A DNA stretch of 64,000 nucleotides from Candidatus Caenarcanales bacterium (GCA_020050435.1 JAGVKQ010000011.1:3350-67349); one strand, 5' to 3'; counted from the stretch's first letter, positions 10,246 through 56,672 are shown. The notes: generated by a model not told the origin, from the letters alone. Translations and numbers: made by a program.

Positions 10246-10984
10246 TATGTGCTAGTAAATTTGTTTGCTCTTTTGTTAGGCGTACAAATAAACCCTCTAA
10301 GTTTTCTTTAGATGATGCTAAATCTGACTTTAAACCATAAGCAATTAACTTTCCATCAAAGATGTAGCCTAATTTTGTACATCTTTCTGCTTCATCCATG
10401 TAGTGAGTGGTGACAAAAAGTGTTAGTCCTTTATTTGCAAGCTCTATGAATAAATCCCATATTTCTTTTCTGGCTACTGGGTCAATACCTGCTGTGGGCT
10501 CATCTAGAAAAATAATTTTGGGATCATGAATTAGTGCACAGGCAAAAGATAGTCTTTGTTTATACCCTCCGGAAAGTTTTGATGCTTGTTTATTTTGTTC
10601 TTTAGTAAGTTGTGTAAGGTCCATAATCTGGTTTAATTTAGATTCTAGAATGTCTTCATTTACTTTATAAAGTTTGCTATAGAAAATAAGATTTTGCTTT
10701 GCAGTTAAATCATCATAAAGGCTAAATCTTTGTGACATGTATCCTATTTCTTTTCTAATTTCTTCGCCATCATTGATTATGCTTAAGTCATGTATCCATG
10801 CATTTCCTGAGGTTGGGGCAATTAGTCCACACAACATTTTAATAGTAGTCGATTTCCCTGATCCATTTGGACCTAGAAACCCAAAAATCTCTCCCTTTTT
10901 AATTTCAATATTTAAATTATTTACTACGGTTACTTCTTTAAACTTTTTAGTAAGATTTTCAGTTTTTATTATTATTTCATTCAT
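10238..10984 (-). CDS. ABC transporter ATP-binding protein
   Basis: Walker A GPNGSGKST, the ABC signature LSGGYKQRLSFA and Walker B IIFLDEP. Confidence 0.9.
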   Translation of the reverse strand: MNEIIIKTENLTKKFKEVTVVNNLNIEIKKGEIFGFLGPNGSGKSTTIKMLCGLIAPTSGNAWIHDLSIINDGEEIRKEIGYMSQRFSLYDDLTAKQNLIFYSKLYKVNEDILESKLNQIMDLTQLTKEQNKQASKLSGGYKQRLSFACALIHDPKIIFLDEPTAGIDPVARKEIWDLFIELANKGLTLFVTTHYMDEAERCTKLGYIFDGKLIAYGLKSDLASSKENLEGLFVRLTKEQTNLLAHNV

Positions 10985-10985
10985 G

Positions 10986-12011: not shown

Positions 12012-12079
12012 GTTTGGATATGTTCTGTCTAGTTAATCAAACTTTGAACTTAGTCATTTGAAACTCGTCAAATCTATAG

Positions 12080-13645
12080 ATGCAAGTAAAGAAACAAGGT
12101 TTCATTTATTTATTAGTATTTCTTCTTTTACAAAGTACTACTTTGAACTTATTTTCTTTTGCAAATGAGAATGAGATTGAAAATACAATTTTACTTGATA
12201 AGCCTAAGATAAAACTTGAAGCAAGAATTGATGAACCGCTAGATATAGATCTAGAGAAGGCTCTTTCAATAGCTCTATTACAAAACCTTGATATTACTTC
12301 TGCAAGAATCAACACTGATCTTTATAAATGGAAACTCTATGAAAATTATAGTAATTACTTGCCAGATGTAAAAGGTGGTCTTTCAGGTCAAAGACTTGAT
12401 GGTACTTTTTTAATTGGTGGCGTTTTTCCTATTATGACCTTAACTAGCAGTGTAAGTGCTTTTTTAAGATTTGACTATAGATTTTTAGAAGGTGGAATGG
12501 GTTTTTTTAATACACTTGCAGCCAATAAACTCTATAAATCATCAAAAGAAAATCTTTCTATTAATATGAAAGATGTTTTACTTCAAGTAACCGATACTTA
12601 TTATCAGCTTTTAAAAGAACAAGCCCAAGCAGAAGTAGTTACTATATCTTTGAATGAAGCTAAGTCTGTTTTAGACTTAAATCAAAAATTACAAAAACAA
12701 GGAGTTGGTACAAAGTTTGATGTATTACAGTCAGAAGCACAATATGCAGAGCAAGAGCAAGCATTTATAAATCAACAGGCAAAATCTAGAGATGCATCAA
12801 TTAACCTTGCAAGACTTTTAAATTTAGAACAGGGTACTCACATAAATCCTGATTTGAAAGATTTAAAACCAAGAAAAATATTTGATACAGATAGACCAAT
12901 CCTGGAAATTATCACTTTAGCAAAAGAGAATAGATCAGAATTAAAAAAAGCACGATTAGATTATAATGCTCAAAAAAACTATATTGGAGTTGCATATTCG
13001 GGATTCTTACCAAATGCAAACTTTTATGGTCAATATGGTGGAAATGGAAGAGTCTTTTTTAACAGAACTAAAATTGCAGAAGTTATACCAGATGCAATTG
13101 CTTTAGATGGAAATGGAAATCCTGTAGTTTCAATGACTAGTAGGGTCTTGAATAGAAATGTTTCTGATGTTATTCCAAATAGCGGCAAGCCATATCTAGT
13201 GGCAACGAATGATTCGCTTATGGCAAGTAAATTTATTGGTGTTCAAGTAGACTGGGATTTTGGAAAAGGTTTAGGTACTTCTACTGTTTCACAAATTAAT
13301 CAGGCTAGATATCAGGCAATGCTAGCAAAGAATAACATTGAAATTTCAAATCAAAAAATAGAGCAAGAAGTTAGATCTTCATACTTAAAAGTTCAAACAA
13401 CAGAAAAACTTATAGATGTTTCTAAAAAGCGTTTAATTGCAGCTACTGAAGCTTTAAGATTAGCTAAGCTAAGGTTAGAAAATGGTGTAGGTTTAAACAC
13501 TGAACTTTTAAATGCTCAAAAACAATATTCATCAGCTCTTGCTGCAAGTGCAAATGCAATTATAGATTACAATACTGCTCAGGCTGAACTAGTTCATTCG
13601 CTTGGCATTATTTCTGTGGATGCCCTAATTTCTCCGCACTCTTAA
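12080..13645 (+). CDS. TolC-like outer-membrane efflux protein
   Basis: 521 aa with a signal peptide and two repeats of the outer-membrane efflux protein helical pattern. It is divergent from two efflux operons. Confidence 0.75.
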   Translation: MQVKKQGFIYLLVFLLLQSTTLNLFSFANENEIENTILLDKPKIKLEARIDEPLDIDLEKALSIALLQNLDITSARINTDLYKWKLYENYSNYLPDVKGGLSGQRLDGTFLIGGVFPIMTLTSSVSAFLRFDYRFLEGGMGFFNTLAANKLYKSSKENLSINMKDVLLQVTDTYYQLLKEQAQAEVVTISLNEAKSVLDLNQKLQKQGVGTKFDVLQSEAQYAEQEQAFINQQAKSRDASINLARLLNLEQGTHINPDLKDLKPRKIFDTDRPILEIITLAKENRSELKKARLDYNAQKNYIGVAYSGFLPNANFYGQYGGNGRVFFNRTKIAEVIPDAIALDGNGNPVVSMTSRVLNRNVSDVIPNSGKPYLVATNDSLMASKFIGVQVDWDFGKGLGTSTVSQINQARYQAMLAKNNIEISNQKIEQEVRSSYLKVQTTEKLIDVSKKRLIAATEALRLAKLRLENGVGLNTELLNAQKQYSSALAASANAIIDYNTAQAELVHSLGIISVDALISPHS

Positions 13646-20578: not shown

Positions 20579-21619
20579 TTGTTTTTAAGAAAGGTATTTA
20601 TGGCAATTAGACCCACTCATTTTTTCCCAGCTCAAAGCTACGTAAAAGGAAGACCTAGTTATTCAGTTTCATCTAAACTTAATAGAACCTTGGGTGTAGA
20701 GGTTGCTCCAGAGTTGACTATGAAAGACTTCTTGAAGACCTCTCTTCAATATTTAAATAGAGATGAAATTTTAGGTGGACGTATAGGGGACATTAATCAT
20801 GTAATTGGCTCTATAGAAGGAAAATGTAGAACTGCTGGTTCAGTTCTTTCCCCAGTTGAAGAACAAATTTTATTATCAATGGGAATCTATGAAAGAAGTA
20901 CTTATATGGATAGAGATACGACTGAACTTGTTCATAGAGTAGTACCAAAAGATGTAACTTATGATGAATGGGGAAAATTGATTGATTCAGAAAAGCCTAT
21001 TTTAGCTCATGAAGCTTTTGATTTATTTGGTTCTTATAGTAATGCTGATAAAGCAGCTATGCTAGAAGTTGTTCACCGTGAAATGACACTTACTTCAGAA
21101 GCTAAATCTACATTAGCTGACTTAAAATCAACACCTATTCCAGCACCCATTGAATTGTTAAAAGCCCATACGGTTTTTAGAGCATTACCAAATGAATCTG
21201 AAATTGCTAAATATGAAAAACTTAGTGTTAGTCTGGGTGGGCTAGTAGCAGTTTTATCACATTATGAAAGTAGACATGCTGATCATAAATATGAACACGC
21301 TTTGCAAGATGTAAATGATATTTATAGAGACTTTGAAACAATACTTTCTCATAAGGCTGATGATTTTGGTTCTAGATTTGGTGTTGAAATCCATAATTTT
21401 AGAGCTGCTAAAGTTGAAGCTCACTTTAGTACATTGAAAGAGTTGCAAGCAAATTCTTTAGATAGTAAATCTATTAATAAGGCTGCTTCTGAAGCACTTT
21501 TAGCTTTAGAAGAACTATTTCATGAGTCTAAGACTTTACCGCCAGAAAGAAGACGTTTAAATGATGTATCTTTTGAAAGAATGAGAACTGCATTAACAAA
21601 GCTTACTCTAGTAGCTTAA
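20579..21619 (+). CDS. Hypothetical protein (346 aa) with a His-rich segment and no recognisable domain
   Basis: Long ORF with a plausible start at MAIRPTHFF. It contains HYESRHADHKYEH. It is convergent with the HerA-like ATPase gene. Confidence 0.5.
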   Translation: MFLRKVFMAIRPTHFFPAQSYVKGRPSYSVSSKLNRTLGVEVAPELTMKDFLKTSLQYLNRDEILGGRIGDINHVIGSIEGKCRTAGSVLSPVEEQILLSMGIYERSTYMDRDTTELVHRVVPKDVTYDEWGKLIDSEKPILAHEAFDLFGSYSNADKAAMLEVVHREMTLTSEAKSTLADLKSTPIPAPIELLKAHTVFRALPNESEIAKYEKLSVSLGGLVAVLSHYESRHADHKYEHALQDVNDIYRDFETILSHKADDFGSRFGVEIHNFRAAKVEAHFSTLKELQANSLDSKSINKAASEALLALEELFHESKTLPPERRRLNDVSFERMRTALTKLTLVA

Positions 21620-27690: not shown

Positions 27691-28761
27691 TTGTTTAAAG
27701 GATATCCCTCAATGTCATCACTAATATATTTATCTGGTCCACAATCAAAAGTAAGTGATCCTTCTTTTCCTATTTCTACTGATTGGAAAACTTATGCAGC
27801 AAGTACTTTTATGAAATCAGGAATTAATGTTTCAAACCCAATTGAGCTCGATCTTTCAGGGTTTGTTAGTACTACTGATGATTCTGGCAATGCAATTAAA
27901 TACTCATTGAACTTAATAGATAAATCAGATTCTCTTCTAGCTAATCTTTCTCAGGTTGCAGAGTCTACTACTATGGAAATGTTTTACGCTCATAATCAAG
28001 GTAAGAGAGTTGTAGTAGTAGGTAGTGAACCATTTAGTCCTTGGGTAATGTTTCATTCTGAAGCTAGATTTCAAAGATTGAGAGATGCTCTGGATTACTT
28101 AGTAAGCAATTCTCATGGTGTAGATAATGTTATGTGGGCAAGTCAATTTGAATCTCAGTTAGTAAAAAGATCTGAACAGTTTCCACCTCATGGCGAAGCA
28201 GATTTTGAGTATTATGGGGGTGACATTCCTGTTTTAGTAATTGCTCCTCATTCCACTAGTTATTTTAGAGGTGGGAATTTATACTCTCAGGAATCATTTA
28301 CGGGCTCACTTTCAGTTTTACTTCATCGGTTGTCTGGTTGCCATAGTTTAATTAGTTCTTATTGTATGGCTGCAGACCCAGTTCTATACTTGAATTCCCC
28401 TTTTTCAAATTTCACATCTCAATTGATTAAAAAATCAAATGTAAAACTTGTTCTTGTTCTTAGAGGGCTTGAATGGTCAAATCACAACGACTTGATTTTA
28501 AATAACAGAAATAAAAACTCATTGATAAATAAAACTGAATATTTAAATCTTTTAACAAGTATGCTCAAAGTTAAAGAATTTAAAGATATTGGATTTGATT
28601 CACCAGACGTGGCTATTCATCCGTTTTTTGAAGATCTTCCTGTTCCAGTTTTAGAGATTCATGTAAATAAAAGGTATAGATTGCCTAGTTTACACCCCAC
28701 TCAATTTTCTAATCTTTATACAGCTCTTGCACAGTATTTAATGCTTGTTGGTATTGGTTAG
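27691..28761 (+). CDS. Fusion protein: an N-terminal nucleoside 2-deoxyribosyltransferase-like (NDT/Rcl-fold) domain plus a ~230-aa C-terminal domain of unknown function
   Basis: LIYLSGPQ at the N-terminus and ESTTMEMFYAHNQGKRVVVV resemble the NDT-family YLAGP and GTAFELGYAYALGKPV blocks. The C-terminal half has no recognisable motif. Confidence 0.45.
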   Translation: MFKGYPSMSSLIYLSGPQSKVSDPSFPISTDWKTYAASTFMKSGINVSNPIELDLSGFVSTTDDSGNAIKYSLNLIDKSDSLLANLSQVAESTTMEMFYAHNQGKRVVVVGSEPFSPWVMFHSEARFQRLRDALDYLVSNSHGVDNVMWASQFESQLVKRSEQFPPHGEADFEYYGGDIPVLVIAPHSTSYFRGGNLYSQESFTGSLSVLLHRLSGCHSLISSYCMAADPVLYLNSPFSNFTSQLIKKSNVKLVLVLRGLEWSNHNDLILNNRNKNSLINKTEYLNLLTSMLKVKEFKDIGFDSPDVAIHPFFEDLPVPVLEIHVNKRYRLPSLHPTQFSNLYTALAQYLMLVGIG

Positions 28762-29606: not shown

Positions 29607-30599
29607 ATGACAGCTATCAAAGTAGGTAATTACGACGCAAAAGTAAATATTACAGAACTTGCAAAGTTAACAAGTAAACCTTTTACTGACCAAACCCCAG
29701 TTCAAGAAGTTACCGCTGCAGTTGTTGGGTTAAGTGATGCTCAATTACAAACCCAAGGATTACTTACTAATCCTGATGATTCACAAGTAAATTTTCAAGC
29801 TTTTATTGCTCAAGTTACTAATGTTAGGCAGGCTATGGCTAAAGTCGCAGCTGCACAAAAAACGCTTGGTGCAACATTTAATATTCCAAAAGAAGGTGGA
29901 AGTCTTGATATTCCTGATGGAGTAAAACTAGAAGCTGCTTCATTAAAAGTTGATGATAGTAAAGGTTTCACATTGACGGAAACAGAAGGTAAATTAAATA
30001 TTCAAATCACAGATGCAATTAAGTTAGCTAAGGGTCAAAATCATGAGATATCTTACACCATTGATGGTGTACCGCAAAAGGCTACTATTGGAGTGACTCT
30101 TAAAGCTGAAAATGCACCAGCAGCAACAAAATTAAATGCTAATTTAGAGAAGGATGTTGAAACGCCACTAGACAAGGTCCTTCCTGGATTTTCAAATGTA
30201 ACTTTTGAAGGTTCACAAATTACTCAATCTACTAAAAAAGTAGGAGAGAAAGATGTTCCTCATATTAAGCATAGTTCTGATAAGGACTTTACCGTTAAAG
30301 GAAAAGGAACTAAGGATGGTAAACCTGATGTACCGTTTGAACTAACTATTAAAGCAAAAGCCGCAGAAACATCAAAGACTTGGTCACTTTGGGTTGGTGG
30401 AATTGCAGCAGTTCTTGGACTTGTAGGTGTAGGAGCAGCAGCTACTAGTGATGGTAGTGCTAAACCATGGGTAACATTGATAACTGGAGCATTGGCTGCA
30501 CTAGGACTTAAATGGGCTGTTGATAGCTATTTAGATAAACCAGGAGATACTAAACCAGGAACTACTCCAGCAACAAAACCAGTAACAAATCCAACATAA
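29607..30599 (+). CDS. Hypothetical membrane-anchored protein (330 aa) with two C-terminal Gly/Ala-rich TM helices and a Pro/Thr-rich tail
   Basis: There is a strong Shine-Dalgarno (AAGGAAGG). The protein has no signal peptide. C-terminal WSLWVGGIAAVLGLVGVGAAA and WVTLITGALAALGLKWAV helices are followed by KPGDTKPGTTPATKPVTNPT. Confidence 0.5.
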   Translation: MTAIKVGNYDAKVNITELAKLTSKPFTDQTPVQEVTAAVVGLSDAQLQTQGLLTNPDDSQVNFQAFIAQVTNVRQAMAKVAAAQKTLGATFNIPKEGGSLDIPDGVKLEAASLKVDDSKGFTLTETEGKLNIQITDAIKLAKGQNHEISYTIDGVPQKATIGVTLKAENAPAATKLNANLEKDVETPLDKVLPGFSNVTFEGSQITQSTKKVGEKDVPHIKHSSDKDFTVKGKGTKDGKPDVPFELTIKAKAAETSKTWSLWVGGIAAVLGLVGVGAAATSDGSAKPWVTLITGALAALGLKWAVDSYLDKPGDTKPGTTPATKPVTNPT

Positions 30600-30721: not shown

Positions 30722-31981
30722 ATGATTTTAATAACACTATCACCAATGCCAGCTATGTATACTACGACTAGTGGTCGTAGTAAATTAGCGACTCCACGTC
30801 AAAGCTATGTAGGAAAAGCTAATGATTTAATGGGTGATATGGCTACCCAAGGTAAAAAATTTGCTGGATATGGCTGGGGACTTTTTAATATTGTTGTTGC
30901 TACCTTAATGGGTGTAAGTAGCTCAATTAGTGCTACTTTTATGAAAGACAATACTGCCGGTGATGTAGTTGCTAAAGGTGGAATTGTCGGAGCTGTACTT
31001 TTTGCAATTGCTGGGCTTTGGAAAATTATTAAAGTAAGTTCAGAAAATACGAAAGCTGAAAAGAAACATGTAAAAACGACTCCTTGTGATGCTGAAGAGA
31101 GATTAAAAAAAGAAGCTTGGCATGCACTTGTAGAACTCAATAAAGAGGATGGGTCAGATTTACTTAAGCCTGCTTCTTCAGAAAACGATGTATTTGCTAA
31201 GACTCTATCTGGTCGAGAACTACCAAGTTCTTTACATTCTTTACACTGTGCAAGGTTTGATGTTTTACAAGACTTATGTCAAAAAGATATTTTAAGAATG
31301 GATAGAGATTATAGGAGTAATTATATTGTAAAAGGTCTTTTACCTACTGAAGAAGAGTTTATAGAGGTGTCAAAACTCAGTGATCAATATGCTTTTTCTA
31401 GAGCTATTCAGGTTGCTGTTAATAGTAGTGTTGGAACAATAAATTCTAGTGAAAGGGAATGTCTTCCTGCTGAGTTTGTACATGTTTATGAATCGATTGA
31501 ATGCTATAAAGACTATGAAAGTCAACTTGAGCAAAGAATTAAAGTGACTCAGGCTGAATTAAAAACTTTTTCTGATGCTGGTAATCATGTTAATAGTGAA
31601 AATTTAACCAAATATATAGAACAGATTACTACTATTCATAATCGTTTGAAAATACTACAACAAGCAATGGTGTTTGCTTCTAATACCACAGATCCTGCTA
31701 GTAATGAAGCAGATTTAAGAAAAGCAAGTTTATATAGATCTGCAATTGTTTCAGGCTTTGAAATTAGAGGAAATTCATTAGTTGATATTACTAATAAAAT
31801 AAATGAAGAATTAGTTAAGCCTGATGGTGTAAATGCTCGAGTAGAAGAATTAGATAAATTATTCAAATGTCTTGTAACGGATATTGCTGCTGTAAAAGAA
31901 TTTCCATATGAAATTAAACAAAGTGAAAACCCTGATTATCTAGGATTGATTTATTTTGAGAAAAAACCTATTTCTGTTTAG
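30722..31981 (+). CDS. Hypothetical membrane protein (419 aa) with two N-terminal TM helices and a large soluble domain
   Basis: [21 protein letters not shown] and [20 protein letters not shown] are TM helices. The remainder is helical and unannotatable. Confidence 0.5.
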
Positions 31982-46054: not shown

Positions 46055-46588
46055 ATGCAAAGAGTATTATCAGTTTTAGTAGAAAATGAATCAGGTGTTT
46101 TAACTAGAATCGCTGGTCTTTTTTCCAGAAGAGGTTTTAACATTGAATCCTTAACGGTGGGACCTACTGAAAATCCTTCTTACGCAAGAATTACAATATC
46201 AGTTGCTGGTAGTAATCGCGCTGTTGAACAAATAACTAAACAGCTTCATAAATTAATCAACGTAATTAAAATTACAGATTTAACTGAATTAAGTTTTGTT
46301 GATAGAGAACTTGCTTTGATAAAAGTATCTTCTAATGCCACAACAAGGGCAGAAATTATTCAAATTGCAGATTTATTTAGAGGACATATTGTAGACGTTG
46401 CTGAAGATGTTTTTATTATAGAAGTTACAGGCGATCAAGGAAAAATAAATGCCATTGTTCATTTGTTAGGAAAGTTTGGAATTAAAGAAATAGCCAGAAC
46501 TGGTAGGGTAGCCCTATCTAGAGGCGTGAAGATCGACCAACAATTAGCACCTAACAGGATACCCCTGAGAATGGTTACTAGCACTTAG
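46055..46588 (+). CDS. ilvH: Acetolactate synthase small (regulatory) subunit, ACT domain protein
   Basis: MQRVLSVLVENESGVLTRIAGLFSRRGFNIESLTV is the canonical IlvH/IlvN ACT domain, and the protein is 177 aa. No large-subunit gene is adjacent. Confidence 0.8.
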   Translation: MQRVLSVLVENESGVLTRIAGLFSRRGFNIESLTVGPTENPSYARITISVAGSNRAVEQITKQLHKLINVIKITDLTELSFVDRELALIKVSSNATTRAEIIQIADLFRGHIVDVAEDVFIIEVTGDQGKINAIVHLLGKFGIKEIARTGRVALSRGVKIDQQLAPNRIPLRMVTST

Positions 46589-46690
46589 GGAAGACCATTT
46601 AAACCATAGGACTATTGAGACTATAACGTTTTAAAGTATGGTCTTATCGTCTCCATAGTCTTTATTGTCTTTCCCTTAGTCTTCCCATAA
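46589..46690. repeat. Family B palindromic repeat, copy 1 (agaccattt...ataggactattgagac...atggtcttatcgtctccatagtcttt)
   Basis: It shares about 90 bp with 50054-50140 and carries the GGACTAT / ATAGTCC inverted cores. Confidence 0.5.
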
Positions 46691-46764
46691 CAATCATTTG
46701 CTTTACTACAGATGTACAGATGTCCTACTGGGATACTATTTATTCTTTCTAAGGAATATTTTTT

Positions 46765-47289
46765 ATGGCAGTTCCTACTGCAACAACTTCAGCACCAACA
46801 CCATCATCAACTGGATCAGCTCCTGCTGTTCAACCAGTTGATCCAAATAATCCTCCAAAGCCAGCAGCACCGACTACTGGAACAGGTGTAGCCGCACCTG
46901 GAGATAAATTTGTTAAAGCTGATAATGCTGAGACTAATGACACAGGAAAAGAAGAAGAAGCAAAAGGTGCAATGGCTTCAGTAAAAGCAATTTTAAGTAG
47001 AATACATTTATTAATAACATCTACAGTAAGGATTGTTAATTCTATGGCAAGGTTTGCCATATTTGGTACTGTTGTAGGTTTATCTAGACAAGGTGTTGAT
47101 TTACTTCAAGGATTACTAGGATCTGGTGATTTTAAGAATTCTGCTTTAAAAGGTAATCTCACAGGACTCTTGAGCTTAATTAATACTGTTTTAGGATCAG
47201 CTAAGGACTCTGCTAGTTTTTGGCAAGATGACATTAAAATTGTTAGAGATTTGAAAAAAGGATTTGATGATAACTCTAAACTTGCATAA
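46765..47289 (+). CDS. Hypothetical protein (174 aa) with a Pro/Thr/Ala-rich N-terminus and a hydrophobic middle
   Basis: There is a Shine-Dalgarno (AAGGA). The N-terminus is AVPTATTSAPTPSSTGSAPAVQP. It is the first gene of the co-oriented hypothetical cluster. Confidence 0.45.
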   Translation: MAVPTATTSAPTPSSTGSAPAVQPVDPNNPPKPAAPTTGTGVAAPGDKFVKADNAETNDTGKEEEAKGAMASVKAILSRIHLLITSTVRIVNSMARFAIFGTVVGLSRQGVDLLQGLLGSGDFKNSALKGNLTGLLSLINTVLGSAKDSASFWQDDIKIVRDLKKGFDDNSKLA

Positions 47290-47300
47290 ATTCTAGGTAA

Positions 47301-47331
47301 GGGTCTTGCATTCAAGACCCTCTGTTTATCT
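47301..47331 (+). terminator. Terminator hairpin gggtcttgcattcaagaccc followed by a T-rich tract
   Basis: It has a 7-bp GC-rich stem. The loop carries the gcattca motif shared with two other terminators in this cluster. Confidence 0.5.
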
Positions 47332-47445
47332 CCATCGAATAGTTTTACGACACCCCTTTTTTCATAACTTTCCTTTAATAATCCTCTGCTTAACTACATC
47401 CACGTAGGAGAGAAGTCTCAAATTGTATTTAGAAAAGGGTGATTT

Positions 47446-48090
47446 ATGTCAGATGGATTAAATATAGTAAGTCAAAATAATAAGAACTTAAGCACAGTTC
47501 TTGCGGCCGATAGTGTTAAATCAGACTTTCAAGGTAGTGACCAAAGAAAGCTTGGTGAAGACCTTATAAAAGAAAGCCTTAAGCATGCAGGTGATTCACA
47601 AGCACAAGCAGAAAAAGCAAGAGACTATTTAAATGCAGCAGATAATTTAGAAAGAATGGCTAAGGCTGTAAGATCTCAAGCAAAAAGAATTAAAGAAAAT
47701 GATGTTAAGCCTGAAGATGCAGTAAAACAAATATCAGAAGTTTTTGGTAACCAAGTTCAAATGCCTCTTCCTAAAGATGCTACACCTGAACAATTAGAAA
47801 GTATTGCAGATGATTTAGAAGCAAAAGCAAAAGAAAATAGAAGAATTGCTGATGATCTTTTAAAAGACTCTGAACATAAAGAAGCATTATCACTTAAATT
47901 AAAAGAACAAGCTATGTTAATGGTAAAAAAAGAAACAGGAGCAGATTCTCTTAGGATGAAGTCTGTAACTGCTCACAATGAAGGACTAAGTATGGTCTTT
48001 AAAAAGTTAGGAATTTACAACGTAGATATGCAGTACAAAGAACAGGTTGCATATGCTAGTAGAAAGGCTTCAGAGAAAGGTTTAATGTAA
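47446..48090 (+). CDS. Hypothetical charged alpha-helical protein (214 aa)
   Basis: There is a Shine-Dalgarno (AAAGGGTGA). The protein is K/E/A/D-rich and predicted helical, with no motif. Confidence 0.45.
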   Translation: MSDGLNIVSQNNKNLSTVLAADSVKSDFQGSDQRKLGEDLIKESLKHAGDSQAQAEKARDYLNAADNLERMAKAVRSQAKRIKENDVKPEDAVKQISEVFGNQVQMPLPKDATPEQLESIADDLEAKAKENRRIADDLLKDSEHKEALSLKLKEQAMLMVKKETGADSLRMKSVTAHNEGLSMVFKKLGIYNVDMQYKEQVAYASRKASEKGLM

Positions 48091-48129
48091 TTTCACTTAA
48101 AGGTGGAATTTAAATAAAGGAGAAAAGTT

Positions 48130-49980
48130 ATGTTTATATTACAGATAAATAATCCAGCACAAGTACAAAAAACAGGCAAAGGAAATGGAATTACAGATTT
48201 TCCTAATGGACAGGCAGCATGGAATGGAACAACCTATGGTTCACGTAAAGAAGCTGAAGCTGCTTGGAACGCCAGCTTTAACTCTAGGGGTGGTATGAGG
48301 GCTCCCCAAAACAATGGTGGTGGTAATGCTAAGGCACAACAAAAAGTAGCTCGTGGAAACGATATGATGCAAGGTGGTCATGCAAAAATTCAAGTAGGTA
48401 ATGATGATGTCCAAGGTGGAGGAGCTAAAGTAGAAAAAGGAAATGGAAATGTTAAGTCTGGTGGAGAGAAAGTTAAAACAGGAAATGAAAAAGTTAATGG
48501 AGGAAATACTAAACTCAAGTCAGGAAATGAAAAGATTGCAACAGGAAAAGGAAAGGTAGAAACTGGTAATACTAAAATAGAAGAAGGTAGTGCAAAAATT
48601 AAAGAAGGTCAAGAGAAACTAAATGGATCTCCTGCTAATGCAGATGCTCAAACTGGAATTAAAGAAGGAGAAGCTAAAATAAACTCCGGTAATGAAAAAA
48701 TTACAGGTGGTCAAACAAAACTTACAGATGGTCAAGCAAAACTTACAGATGGTCAAGGTAAGGTAACCGCTGGACAAGGAAAAGTTACTACTGGACAAGG
48801 ACTTGTTCAAACAGGTCAAGGAAACATACAGGCTGGAGGTGCAAAAGTTCAGGCAGGTCAAGCTACCGTTGCAGCAGGACAAGCTTTAGCTGGTCAAGCT
48901 CAGGCATTAATGGCAGATCCTAAAACTGCTGCTCAAGGTCAGGCAATGATGCAGCAAGCACAAGGTCAAATTCAAAAAGGACAAGCTGAAATCCAGGAAG
49001 GTCAACAAAAAATTCAACAAGGACAAAAAGAAGTTGCTGATGGTCAGTCTCAAATTCAAACTGGTCAAGCTGAAGTAAGTCAAGGGAATGCTGATGTTCA
49101 GAAAGGTCAAGCAGATATACAAGCTGGACAAGCAGATATTCAACAAGGACAGCAAGAAGTACAAGAAGGGCAACAAAAAGTAACTGAAGGTCAAGCAAAA
49201 ACAGATGGTAGTGCTGAAGCTGGTGAAGCAAATGAACTTATTAATGCAGGTAAAGCATTACTTGATGCAGGAAAAACTGAAGTCAAAGCTGGCAATGATG
49301 ATGTCAAAGCAGGAAGTGATGAAGTTGAAGCCGGAAAGAAAGATGTAGATGTTGGAAGTAAAGAGGTTGGAGAAGGAAATAAACTTGTAGAATTAGGAAA
49401 TAAAGATGTGGGCGATGGAAATAAAGATGTAGATAAAGGTCAAAAGAATATTGGTGATGGAAATAAAGATGTCCAGGCTGGACAAGATTTGGTAAAAGAA
49501 GGTGACGCTGCAGGCGGTGGTGGTGGTCCTGGCGGAGCTGGTGCTGGTGGTGCTCAACCACAAACCCCAGATGCATCAGGTGGAGCAAGTCCTGGTGGTG
49601 GTGATGGAGGCGGTGGTGATGGTAAAGAAGCAAAATCCGGTGATGGAACTGCTAATGGATACCTTCAGGCTGCAAAAGCTTTATTAAAACAAATTGGACA
49701 AATCTCGCAAGCAATGTCTGGAAATGCAAATCCTATTATTCAGATAGCTAAAAATCTTACGAATAAAGGACTTGCTGAACAAGCAGTTGCATATCTTGAA
49801 GCTGCACAGGTAGATTCTACCATTGGTGGTCAGTCTATAAATCAAGATATTATTCTTACAAAGGCTATGGCATCTACTTGTAAAGGTGATGCAGATACAA
49901 ACATAAACTTCTGGAAAGAAACTCTTGCAGACAACAAATCTCTTGGTAAGGCCACTCATGACTTAGCGAAGATGGCGTAG
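48130..49980 (+). CDS. 616-aa repeat protein made of more than 100 tandem heptads of the form G-[QN]-x-[KD]-[VI]-x-x, a poly-Gly linker and a conserved ~110-aa C-terminal module
   Basis: There is a strong Shine-Dalgarno (AAGGAGAAAAG). Examples of the heptads are GNEKVNG, GNTKLKS, GQADIQA and GQQEVQE. The C-terminal ANGYLQAAKALLKQIGQISQAM...DLAKMA module is shared with two downstream paralogs. Confidence 0.6.
   Translation: MFILQINNPAQVQKTGKGNGITDFPNGQAAWNGTTYGSRKEAEAAWNASFNSRGGMRAPQNNGGGNAKAQQKVARGNDMMQGGHAKIQVGNDDVQGGGAKVEKGNGNVKSGGEKVKTGNEKVNGGNTKLKSGNEKIATGKGKVETGNTKIEEGSAKIKEGQEKLNGSPANADAQTGIKEGEAKINSGNEKITGGQTKLTDGQAKLTDGQGKVTAGQGKVTTGQGLVQTGQGNIQAGGAKVQAGQATVAAGQALAGQAQALMADPKTAAQGQAMMQQAQGQIQKGQAEIQEGQQKIQQGQKEVADGQSQIQTGQAEVSQGNADVQKGQADIQAGQADIQQGQQEVQEGQQKVTEGQAKTDGSAEAGEANELINAGKALLDAGKTEVKAGNDDVKAGSDEVEAGKKDVDVGSKEVGEGNKLVELGNKDVGDGNKDVDKGQKNIGDGNKDVQAGQDLVKEGDAAGGGGGPGGAGAGGAQPQTPDASGGASPGGGDGGGGDGKEAKSGDGTANGYLQAAKALLKQIGQISQAMSGNANPIIQIAKNLTNKGLAEQAVAYLEAAQVDSTIGGQSINQDIILTKAMASTCKGDADTNINFWKETLADNKSLGKATHDLAKMA
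48340..49500 (+). repeat. Coding 21-bp tandem repeat array, the heptad repeats of the 616-aa protein
   Basis: There is a clear 21-nt periodicity, for example ggtcaagcagatatacaagct / ggacaagcagatattcaacaa. Confidence 0.7.
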
Positions 49981-50006
49981 TCTAGCGATTAGATTATTAG
50001 AAATTG

Positions 50007-50040
50007 AAAAGAGAAGGCATTCATGGTCTTCTCTTTTTGT
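50007..50040 (+). terminator. Terminator-like hairpin aaagagaaggcattcatggtcttctcttt followed by ttgtttgttt
   Basis: The stem is about 9 bp with one mismatch. The loop contains gcattca. Confidence 0.45.
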
Positions 50041-50053
50041 TTGTTTATCTTTT

Positions 50054-50140
50054 AAGACCATTTGACAATAGGACTATGGAGACCATGTCGTCTCACAAAA
50101 ATGGTCTTATGGTCTCCATAGTCTTTATAGTCTACCCCTA
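50054..50140. repeat. Family B palindromic repeat, copy 2 (taggactatggagaccat ... atggtctccatagtcttta)
   Basis: Its arms form an approximately 18-bp inverted repeat, and it is a near-copy of 46589-46690. Confidence 0.5.
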
Positions 50141-50217
50141 GATAACGTTCTCTTAAATATGTCCCTGTTAAATGTCCTGTAACTAGTTCAAAACTAGTAT
50201 AGGAATTTTACATTGTT

Positions 50218-51129
50218 ATGAGACATATAAATTCAACAAACAATATTAATAAAAAACCTGATGTAAATAAGTCAGATAATGCTTCTCAGGAGTCTCCTGC
50301 CCTAAAAGCAGCTAATGCAAAACTCTTACAATCAATGCAATCACAAGCTCAATCAATAAGAAATTTGTCACAAGCCCCATCACAAAATAATCAGGATTTA
50401 AATGTAATTAAAGATAGAAATCAATCTTTATTAGACTTTGATAAAGCTAAAGTTGAATCATTAAAAGAAGATTCTACTAATACAAATAATCAATCAATAG
50501 AAACAGAGGATGCTTCTGGTGGTAGTGCTTATAGTGGTGGATTTTTATTAGGCAAAGATGATTCTACTGGATATAAGGGATATGACCAGTCTCGTGCAAA
50601 TGATTGGAAAGAAGGTAAAGGAATATATTCTACTGGTGGAGCATATTCAACATATACAGGAAATGGTGCAGAAAATCTTAGTGGTTCTGGAGGAGCTGGT
50701 TCTGGTAATGCTGGAAATCAAAATGTAGGAGCTAGTTCTGGTAATGCAAATTCTGGTGGAGGAGTTTCTACTTCTGATAGCGGAAGTGCTGCTGGAAGTG
50801 CAAACGGATACTTGCAGGCTGCAAAAGCATTATTAAAACAAATCGGACAAATCTCACAAGCAATGGCTGGAAATGCAAATCCTATTATTCAGATAGCTAA
50901 AAACCTTACTAATAAAGGGCTTTCAGAGCAGGCAGTAGCATATTTAGAAGCAGCTCAGGTAGATACTACTCTCGGTGGTCAGGCTATAAATCAAGAAATT
51001 ATTTTAACGAAAGCTCAGGCAAGTACTATTAAAGGTGATTCAGATACTAATATTAATTATTGGAAAGAAACTCTTGCAGACAATAAATCTATGGGCAAGG
51101 CTACTCATGACTTAGCTAAGATGGCGTAA
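50218..51129 (+). CDS. Hypothetical protein (303 aa), paralog family member with an MxHINS N-terminus, a G/S/N-rich middle and the conserved C-terminal module
   Basis: The N-terminus MRHINSTNNINKKPD...KAANAKLLQSMQSQAQS is shared with the 51366 gene. The C-terminal 110 aa are about 85% nucleotide-identical to the 3' end of the 616-aa gene. Confidence 0.6.
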   Translation: MRHINSTNNINKKPDVNKSDNASQESPALKAANAKLLQSMQSQAQSIRNLSQAPSQNNQDLNVIKDRNQSLLDFDKAKVESLKEDSTNTNNQSIETEDASGGSAYSGGFLLGKDDSTGYKGYDQSRANDWKEGKGIYSTGGAYSTYTGNGAENLSGSGGAGSGNAGNQNVGASSGNANSGGGVSTSDSGSAAGSANGYLQAAKALLKQIGQISQAMAGNANPIIQIAKNLTNKGLSEQAVAYLEAAQVDTTLGGQAINQEIILTKAQASTIKGDSDTNINYWKETLADNKSMGKATHDLAKMA

Positions 51130-51159
51130 CGTAGCATAAATCGTTTTGTTAATTACCCT

Positions 51160-51187
51160 GTAGGGGCATTGCATTCAATGCCCCTAC
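51160..51187 (+). terminator. Strong terminator hairpin gtaggggcattg catt caatgcccctac followed by ctcttttac
   Basis: The 12-bp stem is perfect, and it contains gcattca as well. Confidence 0.6.
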
Positions 51188-51365
51188 TCTCTTTTACACC
51201 AACATTTTTATTGGACATTGTTCTCCTTGTTCTGTTCTCCCCTAAAAGTCCTTTTTGCCTTTATTCTCCTTTGTTCTCCTTTGTTCTCCATAACTTTCCC
51301 TTAAATATTCCCCTGTTAAATACCCTTTAACTAGCTCAAAACTAGTATAGGGATATTACATTGTT

Positions 51366-52643
51366 ATGAAGCATATAAATTCAATAAATGGAATTAACCA
51401 ACAGGCCGATTTAAGTAAGCCAGGTAATAACGTTGAGGATGTTTCATCACAAAAAGCTGCTAACAGTAAATTGCTTTCTTCTCTTCAATCACAATCTCAA
51501 TCAATGCGAGCTGCAGCACAAGATAATTCACAATTAAGTTCTAGTAAAATAAATGAAAGAGCAGAGTACTCTAAAGATTTTAATAACTCAAATAAAACAT
51601 CACAAGAGTCTAGCGAAACATCAGTAAATAAAATTAAAGAATCTATTGATTTAATGAGTAGTTCATTTTTCAAAAAGACTGAATCAAGATTACTTAAAGA
51701 ACAAGCAAAAACTGAACCTGGTGAAGTTGCTCAGGAATTAAAAAGACAATCTAAAGAAAAACTAAAAGAGGCAATAGCAGATTTTAGAGGTTCATTTAAG
51801 GCTTACAATAAATCACAAGAAGAGGATATGAATGCATTTCAAGCAAGCATGGACGCTTCTAATTCTCAAGACTTAGCTTCTGGTGCACAATCTCAATCTA
51901 ATCAAGCTCAAGTTAAAGCGGTGACTTATAATAATCAGGCAAATAGAACATCAGCAGAAGCTACAACTGTACAAACCCAACAAACACAAAGTCAGTCAGT
52001 GCAACCTCAGTCATCACAAACTCAGTCAGGAGAAACTAAGGATGCTTCTGGTGGGAGTTTATTTGGACCTAATGCAGGATTATTTTCAAATCCTTCCCCT
52101 ACTGCATACAATGGGATGGATCAATCTCGTGCTAATGATTCTCGTAATAGTAAAGGAATCTTTGCTACTGGAGGCGGAGTCTCAGAAATTACAGGAAATG
52201 GTGCAGTAAATTCTAACAATAATGCTAATGCTAATGCTAATGCTAGTGCTGGTGCTTCAAATGGTGCAGATCCTTCCGTTGACACTAATGGTGCTGATGG
52301 ACTTAGCGCTGCAGGTAATGCATATTTAGATGCAGCACGTATGATGCTTAGAGTAGTTATGCAAGTAACGATTGGTGCGAGAAGTTCAAATCCAATTGTT
52401 CAAATATCAAAAAACCTAACTAATAAATCTTTGTCCGACCAAGCTATAGCATATTTAGAAGCAGCAAACGTTGACACTGCTCTTAATGGTACAGCAGTAA
52501 ATCAACAAATAATTCTTACTAAAGCTCAAGCAAGTACTATTAGTGGTGAAGCACAAACAGGTATTAATTACTGGAAACAAGTTCTTGAAGGTAACAAACA
52601 ACTTCAAAAAGAAACACATGATATGTCTAAGGCTGCAGGGTAA
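51366..52643 (+). CDS. Hypothetical protein (425 aa), the third paralog, with an MKHINS N-terminus, a Q/S/N-rich middle and a more divergent copy of the C-terminal module
   Basis: MKHINSINGINQQAD...KAANSKLLSSLQSQSQS at the N-terminus and C-terminal GNAYLDAAR...NPIVQISKNLTNKSLSDQAIAYLEAANVD...ILTKAQAST...NYWK are shared with the other paralogs. The 5' leader is near-identical to that of the 50218 gene. Confidence 0.6.
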   Translation: MKHINSINGINQQADLSKPGNNVEDVSSQKAANSKLLSSLQSQSQSMRAAAQDNSQLSSSKINERAEYSKDFNNSNKTSQESSETSVNKIKESIDLMSSSFFKKTESRLLKEQAKTEPGEVAQELKRQSKEKLKEAIADFRGSFKAYNKSQEEDMNAFQASMDASNSQDLASGAQSQSNQAQVKAVTYNNQANRTSAEATTVQTQQTQSQSVQPQSSQTQSGETKDASGGSLFGPNAGLFSNPSPTAYNGMDQSRANDSRNSKGIFATGGGVSEITGNGAVNSNNNANANANASAGASNGADPSVDTNGADGLSAAGNAYLDAARMMLRVVMQVTIGARSSNPIVQISKNLTNKSLSDQAIAYLEAANVDTALNGTAVNQQIILTKAQASTISGEAQTGINYWKQVLEGNKQLQKETHDMSKAAG

Positions 52644-52692
52644 TAGTAGATAGTATTTTTTTTGTCAAAAAATATGTTGTATACTATGAAAC

Positions 52693-53496
52693 GTGCAATC
52701 AATATCTAAGTTTGGCAAGAACCCTTTTATATGGCTAGTAGAGCTGGGTGATTCATTTAGAATTTTCACCTTTGCCATTTATTACATTCTTCGTGGGAAA
52801 TTCCCAAAAAAAGAATTTATTGAACAAGCCAGTAGATTAGGATTTGATACTTTGCCTGTGGTTGCTGTTGTTACATTTTTTATTGGATTAGCTTTAACTC
52901 TTCAGATTTCTAAACAGCTTATGGGTGTTGGAAACACTAGTACTCTTGGAACTTCAGTTGCAGTATCTATAGTCCGTGAAATTGGTCCTGTTATTGCTGG
53001 TGTAATGATAGCTGCTCGTGTAGGTGGAGCTATGGCCGCAGAGATTGCTACGATGAGTGTTACAGAACAGATTGATGCTCTCAAAATTATGAAAATTGAT
53101 CCCATTAGTTTTCTTGTTGCGCCTAGAATATTAGCTTCAATGATAATGGCTCCTTTGCTAACCGTTTATGCTATTTATATTGGTAGTCTTGGTGGAATGC
53201 TTATCGCTATTATTTATGTGCAGCTTGACCCTTATATGTTTTTTGACTCATTTAGATCTGTTGTTGGAGATAGAGATATTCTTATTGCGCTTGCAAAAGC
53301 ACTTGTTAATGGCTCTTTAGTTGCTACATTTAGCTGTGCATTTGGAATGCAAACTTCTGGTGGTGCTGCAGGTGTGGGTCAAACTACTACTAAAGCAGTT
53401 GTGTGGGCTATGCTTTGTATCTTCTTATTTAATTTCTTAATTACAAACGCTGTGTATTCTGTTGGAAAAGTTTTAGACCCATCTTTTATAAAGTAA
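52693..53496 (+). CDS. mlaE: Phospholipid ABC transporter permease MlaE family (GTG start)
   Basis: 267 aa with 5 TM helices. The conserved region LPVVAVVTFFIGLALTLQ and the MlaE-type C-terminus are present. Confidence 0.8.
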   Translation: MQSISKFGKNPFIWLVELGDSFRIFTFAIYYILRGKFPKKEFIEQASRLGFDTLPVVAVVTFFIGLALTLQISKQLMGVGNTSTLGTSVAVSIVREIGPVIAGVMIAARVGGAMAAEIATMSVTEQIDALKIMKIDPISFLVAPRILASMIMAPLLTVYAIYIGSLGGMLIAIIYVQLDPYMFFDSFRSVVGDRDILIALAKALVNGSLVATFSCAFGMQTSGGAAGVGQTTTKAVVWAMLCIFLFNFLITNAVYSVGKVLDPSFIK

Positions 53497-54270: not shown

Positions 54271-54945
54271 ATGAAGAATGAGAATGAAATAAAAATAGGA
54301 ATCTTTGCAATGTCAGCTTTATTTCTATTGATAATTGGATGGGCCTTTTTAAGAGAATTAGCTCTTCATAAACAGACTACATTTTATGTTTCTTTTAAAG
54401 ATACAGTGGGTTTAAGTAAAGGTTCTTTTATTAAGATCAATGGTGTAAGGGTAGGTAGAGTTGATAGTTTAACCTTAGATCTAAAAACCAATAAAGTTCT
54501 TGTTAAAACTAGGATTCAATTGCCAGACATTCGTATTCCTGATGACTCGAAATTTATTATTCGAACAAGTGGATATGTAGGTGATAAGTTTTTAGATATT
54601 GCGCTTGGCATGGCATCTAGCTTTATTAAGGATGATCAGGAAATTGCTGGAGAACCTGCTGTTGATGCATTTGCTTCTTTGGAAAAAATTAGTAAAGTTT
54701 TAGATCACATAGATCCTGAACTATTAGCTATGGATATTCAGAATACAGCCTCTAGTGCTGCAACTCTTACAAAAAATGCAGATAAAGCTGTATTAGTAGC
54801 CAGCCGAGAATTCTCATCAACTAACCAAGAGTTTTCATCAGCTTTAAATCAAAGATTTTTACTTCCAAAGTTGTTATTTGGAAAAGTATTACCAAATAGT
54901 AAAATTGATAAGAAGAAAAAAAATGCTAAGGATGATAAAAATTAA
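54271..54945 (+). CDS. mlaD: MCE-domain periplasmic substrate-binding protein, MlaD-like
   Basis: An N-terminal TM anchor is followed by an MCE domain (VSFKDTVGLSKGSFIKINGVRVGRV). Confidence 0.75.
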   Translation: MKNENEIKIGIFAMSALFLLIIGWAFLRELALHKQTTFYVSFKDTVGLSKGSFIKINGVRVGRVDSLTLDLKTNKVLVKTRIQLPDIRIPDDSKFIIRTSGYVGDKFLDIALGMASSFIKDDQEIAGEPAVDAFASLEKISKVLDHIDPELLAMDIQNTASSAATLTKNADKAVLVASREFSSTNQEFSSALNQRFLLPKLLFGKVLPNSKIDKKKKNAKDDKN

Positions 54946-55349: not shown

Positions 55350-56672
55350 GTGTTTTTATTGTTTTCATCATCACTAGCTATTGATCCAACTATTAGTCTG
55401 AGCCCAAGACTTACTGACTTGTCTAAAAAAGCAAGTGAGCTGAAATCTAAGCTTACATATAAAGCTATAAAAAAAGGGGAGCAAAATCATTTAGCTCAAA
55501 GAGTTGGGATTGAAGCCATAGGTGTAGATTTGCCTACTATTGTTTGTGAGTTTTTTCTTAGAGGGTATAAATCTGCTTTAGGTTCTGGTATAAGAATTAG
55601 TTTATTTATTCTTAACTCATTGATAATTCCTACTTTAATTGTTCCAGTGTTAAGTTTCTTTGCTAAAAGTAAATTTGACTTACCTAAACACTTTAAAAAT
55701 TCTTTTTTAAATCAATTTGAAGATTTAACTCCTGAGAAGAAAACTGATGAATCAAATGTTGAGTTTGTGGAAAGTGTTAAAAAAATAGAGAGTGAAGAAG
55801 CTGTTAAGAAAGAGTTCTATAAAAGTGATGGCAGTGTTGATCATGCTTCTGTATTAGGCTTTAAAGATAAGATATTAAAAGCTAAGTCATTTGTAATGAG
55901 GTGGGATGTTCAAGTTTCAGGACTTTTAACTTATTTAGTTCCATGGTGTCAAAATTGGTTTGAGCAAAAAACTCTAGGCTTAATAGGTTTCTCTGGAGAG
56001 GATAAATTTTTAGAAGATTCACAGAAAGATGAAAGTATGGAATTCCATAATAAATATAAAAATTGGAAGCTTGCTGCAGGTGTATTACCTACAGTTTTAG
56101 GTAGTCATTACTTTTCAAAAACAGTTCAGGATTCTGTAGGAAGTACTGATGAGGAAGTTAAGAATAAAAGTATAAAGGGGTTTGTAAAAAAACATATTAA
56201 ACAATTTGATTATCATGAAGGTATTTATGCAAACAAATTAAATCTTGCCGGAATTATATTTTTTGGTGGTGATGCTGGTATGATTCTGGCTGCCAGAACC
56301 ATTGGTGAGGCTTGTGAAAGAGTCGTAAGACTTAGTGCATTTTGGCCATCATTTGTCTATGGTATTGAATGGATGCATTCTAAATTTGCTTTAAGTAGCG
56401 ATAAAAAACAAGATACTCAGTTGATTGATCATAATGAGCATGAAGAGTTTGGTATAAAGAAAGTAAAAACTTTAGATAAGTTAGAATTAGAATTTGATAC
56501 AGCTGTTAAAGAAAATGATGAAAAGAAAGCAGGAGTTGCATTAAAGGGGATGGAAAATGGGGTGGGTGCTTTTGGGAAAGCATTCTTAGGAAACAGTGCA
56601 TTTCTTGGAGTAATACTAAATCTAATTAGTTATGTGTTTATGAGAGTAAGAATTGCAAAGGGTATTTATTAA
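55350..56672 (+). CDS. Hypothetical membrane-associated protein (440 aa, GTG start)
   Basis: Long ORF with hydrophobic segments (LFILNSLIIPTLIVPVLSFF, GIIFFGGDAGMILAA) and no recognisable domain. Confidence 0.4.
   Translation: MFLLFSSSLAIDPTISLSPRLTDLSKKASELKSKLTYKAIKKGEQNHLAQRVGIEAIGVDLPTIVCEFFLRGYKSALGSGIRISLFILNSLIIPTLIVPVLSFFAKSKFDLPKHFKNSFLNQFEDLTPEKKTDESNVEFVESVKKIESEEAVKKEFYKSDGSVDHASVLGFKDKILKAKSFVMRWDVQVSGLLTYLVPWCQNWFEQKTLGLIGFSGEDKFLEDSQKDESMEFHNKYKNWKLAAGVLPTVLGSHYFSKTVQDSVGSTDEEVKNKSIKGFVKKHIKQFDYHEGIYANKLNLAGIIFFGGDAGMILAARTIGEACERVVRLSAFWPSFVYGIEWMHSKFALSSDKKQDTQLIDHNEHEEFGIKKVKTLDKLELEFDTAVKENDEKKAGVALKGMENGVGAFGKAFLGNSAFLGVILNLISYVFMRVRIAKGIY

Follow-up and report, generated by a model that had tools for sequence, protein, structure and literature searches.

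A stretch of 64,000 nucleotides (nt) from a Candidatus Caenarcanales bacterium (GCA_020050435.1 JAGVKQ010000011.1:3350-67349), the whole of which we call the window, carries five + strand open reading frames (ORFs) between ilvH (46055-46588) and mlaE (52693-53496), the latter followed by mlaF and mlaD. The products, of 174, 214, 616, 303 and 425 amino acids (aa), lie exactly where an earlier reading of the same DNA, here the original prediction, had placed them. We refer to the five as g1 to g5 in 5' to 3' order, and to the loci from relatives as L001-L020; the flanking genes were identified from Pfam annotation at orthologous positions in the relatives and from blastp labelling. Four of the five proteins end in the same module of about 110 residues, and each carries it behind an arm of a different kind. 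In our judgment the module is rather probably a domain for docking or co-assembly, one that gathers the variable arms into a single structure.

The original prediction had seen the C-terminal module in three of the proteins. The likeness is real and far above chance (module hidden Markov model (HMM) E-values of 1e-47 to 1e-61), but it is found in four genes, g1, g3, g4 and g5. The modules of g3 and g4 are 88-89% identical, and that of g5 is 52-59% identical to these two. The additional copy is a divergent one. In g1 (46765-47289, +; 174 aa) it occupies residues ~65-174, behind a Pro/Thr-rich N-terminus that had been pointed out before and is plainly visible in the protein sequence. Aligned by hhalign to the module profile, g1 matches over residues 69-174, reaching its last residue, at E 1.3e-5, and a broader module HMM built from database matches finds it at E 1.8e-12. 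By these profile comparisons g1 is a member of the same family as g3-g5, a kinship that had been overlooked.

How widely is the module carried, and by what proteins? Searched exhaustively with the HMM, 1.84 billion cluster representatives gave 48 module matches, about 46 of them genuine, as against the 2 module homologs returned by a word-indexed search of 5.8 billion proteins. In all of the ~46 true matches the module lies at the extreme C-terminus, in proteins of 72-822 aa whose N-terminal parts are unrelated. The proteins of the present cluster end in ...DLAKMA, with no positively charged tail beyond. Being always terminal, and on unrelated partners, the module behaves as a portable docking domain. 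AlphaFold2 models it as three helices (residues 2-22, 29-52 and 61-109; predicted local distance difference test (pLDDT) score 86), and a fold search brought up, as its nearest neighbors, three-helix interaction domains of a generic sort, MIT, BAG and spectrin-like repeats among them. Of the codons that distinguish the g3 module from the g4 module, 28 differ synonymously and 12 non-synonymously, so that the two are under purifying selection and not freshly copied. A profile search of all PDB sequences returned nothing for the module, and comparison with PDB folds gave, for any component of the cluster, generic helical bundles only. In a full Pfam-A scan, which covered the five window proteins at E<=1 and 45 family members at E<=0.1, no Pfam family recurred among the 45 module proteins. 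As far as sequence comparison can tell, the module is a new and previously undescribed protein family.

Modules resemble one another according to genome rather than N-terminal type. The N-terminal types are common across genomes: one begins MFIL..., one is short and Pro-rich, and one begins M.H[IL][NG][SP]... and has R..[MIL]R near residue 45-50. The g3 module of the window is 88% identical to that of g4, but only 68-73% identical to those of its g3 orthologs. The three modules of L007 are 34-45% identical mutually and <=31% identical to any other; the module pair of L009 is 62% identical, with <=28% identity to others. Even the tails of the g1 proteins lean to their own genome, with 32% identity in L009 vs <=23% elsewhere, and 34% in L006 vs 25-27%. 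Judged by these identities, the modules evolve in concert within genomes, a point that is absent from the original prediction. To what, then, is a module matched? Between L001 and L015, g2 is 53% identical and the module 88%; between L009 and L016, g2 is 56% identical and the module 27%. The class of the module thus changes independently of g2, which suggests that modules are matched to one another rather than to g2.

That the proteins have conserved ends and variable cores had also been claimed, and the locus of a close relative, L013, which we used as the comparison for the window, bears this out. Protein identity between the two is 100% for ilvH, 96% for g2, 93% for folE and 92% for both pdxA and mlaE; it is 75% for g4 and g5, 42% with 75 gaps for g3, and 28% for g1. 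In the DNA, the flanks agree at 86-94% of positions, and similarity cannot be detected in two segments, 46828-47357 (the g1 tail) and 48133-49495 (the g3 core). Where the window has a Gly-heptad array, the g3 core of L013 is an unrelated coiled coil rich in Ala and Gln. Over all pairs of loci, g1 evolves fastest, g2 comes second and the module third. Swapping of arms, and of the whole of g1, between near-identical genomes is typical of molecules that face phages, hosts, prey or kin, and suggests to us an assembly exposed either on the cell envelope or toward a biotic partner.

Might the proteins instead stay in the cytoplasm? They could form an internal scaffold or condensate in which the tail oligomerizes and the arms, disordered and rich in Gln, Asn, Gly and Ser, or coiled-coil, and barely constrained in sequence, recruit clients or set spacing. 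Such a scaffold would have just this architecture, in which a helical bundle at the C-terminus comes after a disordered arm; the proteins are hydrophilic, carry no export signal of any kind and have no export machinery nearby, and their core syntenic position in every clade member fits a housekeeping function in cell biology. For g1 there is even a model of sorts in the polar organizing proteins of the PopZ type: with ~175 aa, an N-terminal half that is disordered and rich in Pro, and about three helices grouped at the C-terminal end, g1 follows the plan of a self-assembling hub protein. The similarity is one of overall plan: g1 has no match to the PopZ family in Pfam or NCBIfam and no homology to PopZ, which is a single-copy, alphaproteobacterial protein, and g1 evolves extremely fast, which would be unusual for a cell-pole hub. 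Nor did the Pfam scans find homology to DivIVA or bactofilin, or any clear homology to PspA. The manner in which the arms change is more difficult to reconcile with a scaffold. Housekeeping DNA differs by 6-14% between the window and L013, so that neutral drift should have left recognizable similarity in g1 and the g3 core. The lack of it suggests that foreign or very old alleles have taken their place, as would seldom be expected of an internal scaffold; the window allele of g1, whose only match among 5.8 billion proteins is itself, also speaks against one. We regard the scaffold as a serious candidate but a somewhat unlikely one.

The remaining protein, g2 (47446-48090, +; 214 aa), is a single-copy helical-hairpin protein that lacks the module and is the invariant member of the cluster. 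Its homologs, of which there are at least 39, are all 204-220 aa long and align with the conserved motifs PxPKDATPE..LE..IA and VFKKLGI..LD.EYKEQVAY. AlphaFold2 models g2 (pLDDT 70) as a long helical hairpin, with helices at 30-83 and 114-163, plus extra helices. Searched as a profile against all PDB sequences, g2 found de novo or designed coiled coils only, and among 37 members scanned singly no Pfam family recurred. On this showing the g2 hairpin protein is a new, undescribed family. That it might be a divergent module protein was ruled out (hhalign probability 1.5%), and the name that one public source gives to g2 (P0003), "ribosomal protein L17", is spurious, its apparent basis being a Pfam match at E 0.15 and 13.4 bits, against a cut-off of 27. 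In most loci g2 sits 16-48 bp upstream of a long g3-type gene. It is kept even in minimal loci, which consist of g2 and one protein of ~190-220 aa with a faintly module-like C-terminus, so that the invariant core of the system is g2 together with at least one tail-bearing protein. The invariable presence of g2 and its tight coupling to the g3-type gene suggest that it is a structural partner or a chaperone.

How might these parts work together? From the patterns in the sequences we infer binding between modules, a role for g2 and a location. Each tail-bearing protein begins with a short motif, continues in a long arm under weak constraint and ends in the conserved ~110-residue domain, predicted to have three helices; the arms are Pro-rich, Gly-heptad repeats, coiled coils or Gly/Ser/Asn/Gln low-complexity stretches. 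Modules made in the same cell would bind each other, or one common site, and would so bring the arms of g1, g3, g4 and g5 into a single heteromeric assembly. As structural partner or chaperone, g2 would serve this assembly, which would leave by a Sec-independent route and be displayed on the cell envelope or toward a biotic partner. Taken as a whole, with co-assembly, a partner role for g2 and exposure at the envelope or to a biotic partner all included, the proposal is a tentative one that we hold with reserve.

Several observations weigh against the proposal. Hydrophobic segments, whether N-terminal or internal, are absent from all five proteins, as are signal peptides, lipoboxes and membrane segments, and the 64-kb window contains no machinery for secretion, flagella or pilus assembly. 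Hypervariability is in keeping with exposure, but also with weakly constrained disordered spacers, and disordered or repeat regions can be replaced under relaxed constraint without any exposure. Gene conversion between tandem paralogs could by itself yield modules that group by genome. The partner role of g2 is weakened because g2 does not co-vary with the class of the module. Only one of the five AlphaFold2 module models was confident, built on a five-sequence alignment. Finally, the clade shares one gene order over about 25 kb around the cluster, so that adjacency to ilvH and mlaEFD is uninformative about function.

The original prediction had nominated the cluster as a secreted or surface system. 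The nomination is plausible, but the proteins lack signal peptides and nearby machinery, and neither in sequence nor in fold was a link to any family of secretion substrates found. A related possibility is that the proteins are Sec-independent secretion substrates that act singly outside the cell, the tail being a translocation signal or a chaperone-binding domain, in the manner of the C-terminal signals of type I substrates, the BID domain of type IV effectors or the C-termini of flagellar substrates held by their chaperones, and g2 the dedicated cytoplasmic chaperone. The conserved domain is at the exact C-terminus of every member, and Gly-rich repeats stand just before it in g3 and g4. Ser, Thr, Asn and Ile abound in the N-termini, the arms are hypervariable, and one conserved helical partner with many variable clients is the pattern of a chaperone and its substrates. 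Sec signals are lacking, g2-g5 are acidic (isoelectric point (pI) 5.5-6.4), and there is a single Cys across all five proteins; the pI of g1 is 8.9, and its grand average of hydropathy (GRAVY) is close to zero. Flagella occur in some other Melainabacteria, and a type I system is present in the aquifer genome ACD20, in a study that reports nothing on the present genes (Di Rienzi et al., PMC3787301).

Against secretion substrates stands the lack of any recognizable secretion signal: the RTX nonapeptide, BID, WXG100, LXG, PE/PPE, flagellin and FlgM signals were found in 0 of the 45 family members. The only ABC/HlyD/OEP set in the window (9094-13645, 33 kb away) occurs with an ABC-2-type permease, which is an efflux architecture. 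A pure signal, moreover, would have no need of 110 residues, of 60-90% conservation, or of matching between the paralogs in each genome, and the failure of g2 to co-vary with module class counts against a chaperone as it did against a partner. The flagellated Melainabacteria genomes have been described as having no complete electron transport chain (PMC3787301). In the window are respiratory genes, for the flavoprotein and Fe-S subunits of succinate dehydrogenase/fumarate reductase and for a UbiE-type methyltransferase, and the lineage may thus be a different, possibly non-flagellated one. We think it unlikely that the proteins are secretion substrates of this sort.

The known systems that come nearest to the cluster each share part of its logic. 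Type I substrates with a Gly-rich beta-roll resemble g3 in having Gly-rich repeats of short period right before a conserved C-terminal region, and resemble g2-g5 in their acidity, near absence of Cys and lack of an N-terminal signal. They differ in that the period of g3 is 7 residues, not 9, with no GGxGxD, in that the C-terminal region here is a 110-residue folded domain, and in that no pair of ATP-binding cassette (ABC) and membrane fusion proteins of the type I secretion kind adjoins the cluster. Neither the RTX nonapeptide GGxGxDxUx nor HemolysinCabind matched the window proteins or the 45 members. A match to RTX_C in P0049 scored 19.4 bits, with a cut-off of 30.2, and lies in the coiled-coil arm outside the module; it was dismissed.

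The Bep effectors of Bartonella are tandem paralogs with a portable, all-helical C-terminal domain of ~100 residues, BID, and so are alike in plan; the present proteins, however, have no Pfam match to BID and no positively charged tail, and the 64-kb window has no VirB, VirD4 or other type IV secretion genes. The PE/PPE proteins (including PE_PGRS) and the LXG-Lap systems of type VII secretion pair a conserved domain that is helical with variable parts rich in Gly and with small helical partners, but there the conserved domain is N-terminal and here it is C-terminal. The WXG100, LXG and PE/PPE models gave no significant match (EspB_PPE E 0.89; an LXG chain E 1.5), a LapA4 match reflects generic hairpin similarity, and no ATPase of the EssC/EccC type is in the window.

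Dockerin-bearing cellulosome proteins offer another parallel in logic, since there, too, unrelated proteins of one organism bear the same small terminal module. Dockerins of one organism are more alike than those of different organisms because they must fit one docking system. Dockerins are, however, Ca-binding, EF-hand-like repeats on proteins with Sec signals, whereas the present module is a predicted three-helix bundle on proteins without a signal, no cohesin-like receptor has been identified, and neither dockerin nor cohesin models matched the window proteins or the 45 members.

Flagellins and other axial proteins with their chaperones (FliC-FliS, FlgK/L-FlgN) are similar in having conserved termini, a hypervariable center and paralogs that evolve in concert. 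They likewise have no cleavable signal peptide, and in the flagellar system a helical chaperone recognizes the C-terminal helices. Pfam models for the flagellin N- and C-termini, for rod and hook proteins and for FlgM found no match in the five window proteins or the 45 members. One might imagine a Sec-independent surface fiber or coat of the Melainabacteria in which the tail serves both as signal for export and recognition and as polymerization unit, g2 is the dedicated cytoplasmic chaperone, and the interchangeable arms (g1 and the g3 core) form the exposed, diversifying face. Such a fiber or coat would be a functional analogue of flagellin-FliS or pilin logic, made from unrelated families and using a new export route; in this specific form we consider it quite improbable.

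More general searches were equally without result. With Pfam, NCBIfam, PHROGs and PADLOC no family was found for g1, g2, g4 or g5; PADLOC gave matches to JetC and DRT at the coiled-coil level only, and PHROGs gave none. Phasin models did not match, and for GvpC there was only a Halo_GVPC match at E 0.082 over 16 residues of g5. The original prediction had named homology to FliK, FlgM or phasins, or conservation across phyla, as what would count against it; neither was found.

The cluster is lineage-specific, as had been proposed: the ~46 clusters stand among 1.84 billion representatives, and every locus recovered is collinear with the others. The loci of relatives were gathered by exact-protein look-ups, by a scan of species-representative genomes and by a scan of metagenomes. 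Their common order begins with asd, a queE-like radical SAM gene, a gene for an N-methyl-motif protein, coaE, hpf, pdxA, folE and ilvH, and continues with a g1-type gene (not in all), g2, one to four module proteins, mlaEFD, a 440-aa ORF, sdhCAB and pnp. The collinearity of ~25 kb was taken to rule out a functional tie to ilvH or to the Mla transporter based on adjacency; in L006 and L020 the cluster is without an adjoining mla or ilvH. The one credibly labelled genome match is to Candidatus Melainabacteria bacterium SSGW_16, a genome for which no mention was found in the literature. L006 (CAZRTB010000003.1) is labelled "uncultured Gammaproteobacteria", and contains queE, the N-methyl protein gene, coaE, hpf, pdxA, folE, ilvH, g1, g2 and g3. 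Its genes follow the same order throughout as those of the Melainabacteria loci, and the label is probably wrong.

Could the ORFs be artefacts of low-complexity DNA, or cargo of a phage, plasmid or defence island? The G+C content (GC) of 48001-50000 is 0.39-0.41 against a background of ~0.32, with a GC skew of about +0.27-0.28 and an AT skew of +0.24 to +0.33; part of the cluster has repeats on either side, and in L013 a toxin-antitoxin-like pair is inserted at the junction of ilvH and g1. The compositional anomaly is attributable to the Gly/Gln/Lys-rich heptad repeats of g3 rather than to foreign DNA. Gene order and reading frame are kept across more than 15 independent loci, and synonymous change exceeds non-synonymous change in the module. 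There is no PHROGs match and nothing but noise from PADLOC, and tblastn with the module and g2 against 72,556 plasmids, and with the module against 50,697 phages, found no match. Conservation effectively refutes an artefact or mobile origin, to which we assign a negligible probability.

A further alternative arises from g3 itself (48130-49980, +; 616 aa), which starts 39 bp after g2, behind an AAGGAG site, and consists of a MFIL N-terminus, a Gly-heptad core of ~400 aa (nt ~48300-49570), a Gly-rich linker and the module (nt 49645-49977; module HMM E 1e-48). Gly autocorrelation in the core peaks at 7, 14, 21 and 28 residues, and the DNA beneath it is made of decayed 21-bp tandem arrays. The region matches the Pfam family LbR_Ice_bind, the beta roll of a grass antifreeze protein, at 36.9 bits with a cut-off of 30. 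Thus the earlier statement that none of the five has a recognizable domain holds for g1, g2, g4 and g5 but must be amended for g3, which has this repeat-level match. Taken at face value, it would make these proteins stress hydrophilins of the late embryogenesis abundant (LEA) kind, highly hydrophilic repeat proteins that shield membranes or proteins from desiccation or cold. The GRAVY of -0.7 to -0.8 and the Gly-, Gln-, Ala- and Lys-rich composition of g2-g5 would suit such a role, as would samples that come from groundwater and other environmental sources. But the beta-roll match occurs in only 1 of 45 family members, and with an unrelated, Ala/Gln-rich orthologous core in the closest relative it is most likely a match of periodicity and composition. 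A hydrophilin function would also leave the conserved folded module, g2 and the within-genome matching unexplained. We consider it very improbable.

What is gained by recognizing such a cluster? Lineage-specific families of no assigned role are common in uncultured phyla; what is distinctive here is the shared tail together with concerted evolution and cassette replacement. When we call the cluster categorically new we mean that comparison with the known families placed it in none of them, and for that reason it should not be filed under any of the families compared; no new mechanism is demonstrated thereby. The Melainabacteria are the closest non-photosynthetic relatives of the cyanobacteria, and since nearly all are uncultured their cell biology is known from gene inventories. 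In every recovered locus of the clade the module and g2 families hold a fixed core position, and they evolve much faster than their neighbors. A concerted module combined with cassette-like arms is usually found in structures that confront other organisms, as filaments, coats, adhesins and effectors do. If the assembly is exposed, it would be an uncatalogued surface structure or export route of this lineage, and could serve as a marker for strain typing in metagenomes. If it is internal, the module would be a new self-assembly domain. Both the module and g2 merit definition as families whichever of these holds.

The last two genes are g4 (50218-51129, +; 303 aa), which joins an N-terminus of the MRHINS type to a Gly/Ser/Asn-rich linker and a module (nt ~50797-51126; HMM E 5.6e-50), and g5 (51366-52643, +; 425 aa), of the MKHINS type, with an extra coiled-coil/Gln-rich insert and a module of a second subtype (nt ~52311-52640; HMM E 7e-47). 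Their common N-terminus, noted before, covers the first ~55 residues, and the likeness extends into the DNA upstream, where 76 nt are 87% identical between the g4 leader or promoter region (50142-50217, +) and the second copy ahead of g5 (51290-51365, +). Both leaders contain the 24-mer TAACTAGnTCAAAACTAGTATAGG, which is found nowhere else in the window, with 0 occurrences expected. Within the leaders (50180-50203 and 51328-51351) is AACTAG(T/C)TCAAAACTAGT, with two ACTAG units 6 nt apart, and TATAGG is followed by ATG ~14-19 nt on. It may be that the leader is an operator and promoter for a nearly leaderless mRNA.

The original prediction gave each gene its own terminator. A stable hairpin with a T-run is found only after g1 (47300-47321, +; -14.2 kcal/mol, z -3.2), g3 (50005-50039, +; -15.7 kcal/mol, z -3.7) and g4 (51160-51187, +; -21.2 kcal/mol, z -6.4), and there is no hairpin in the 39-bp gap between g2 and g3 or the 49-bp gap between g5 and mlaE. 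The placement of the hairpins and the sizes of the gaps make it likely that the transcription units are g1, g2-g3, g4, and g5, the last perhaps running on into mla. In sigma-70 and terminator scans the site counts equaled those expected from shuffled sequence, so that only the three hairpins right after stop codons are meaningful.

Palindromic repeats had been said to bound the cluster, a description that does not hold, as the two copies of ~85 bp in the 64 kb bracket g1-g3 rather than the whole. Copy 1 (46598-46680), in the spacer between ilvH and g1, has imperfect arms (46610-46624 and 46646-46660) and a weak RNA fold (-16.3 kcal/mol, z -2.1); it aligns to copy 2 with a 33-bp core at 94%. 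Copy 2 (50050-50135), in the g3-g4 spacer, has perfect 15-nt arms (50072-50086 and 50109-50123) and folds at -31.7 kcal/mol (z -5.2). Rfam found only sub-threshold, microRNA-like matches in the spacers, and these lie on the palindrome. A regulon marked by the g4/g5 leader or by the palindrome was considered and rejected, as neither occurs beyond chance elsewhere in the window or in related loci. An exact 14-nt match to the palindrome core (GGTCTCCATAGTCT-like) lies at 31504-31517 on the minus strand, within the ORF at 30722-31981, and may be a chance occurrence or a relic third copy.

The junction between ilvH and g1 differs between the two closely compared genomes. In the window it is a 176-bp spacer that holds the palindromic element only. 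In L013 (8004-8684, minus) a toxin/antitoxin-like pair is inserted, consisting of a 158-aa protein that by eye is PIN-like and a 66-aa partner. The junction looks like a hotspot for insertion or recombination beside the hypervariable g1. A sign of exchange is seen farther along, where window 52016-52631, the middle of g5, is 68% identical in DNA to L013:12859-13479, which belongs to the g4 ortholog. The middle of that L013 protein (P0042), ...DASGGSLFGPNAGLF..., resembles window g5 and not window g4, which points to mosaic recombination between paralogs.

Elsewhere in the window, four + strand ORFs of 330-419 aa (20579-21619, 27691-28761, 29607-30599 and 30722-31981) have no Pfam match at E<=1e-5 and lack the module. 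The 440-aa ORF at 55350-56672 (+), also without a Pfam match, directly follows mlaD in most relatives and is 81% identical in L013, and is thus another clade-specific protein at a fixed position. The mlaD gene itself (54271-54945, 224 aa) varies in length: its product is 212-224 aa in the window and L013, and 331-343 aa, by way of a C-terminal extension, in L005, L008, L009, L015 and L016.

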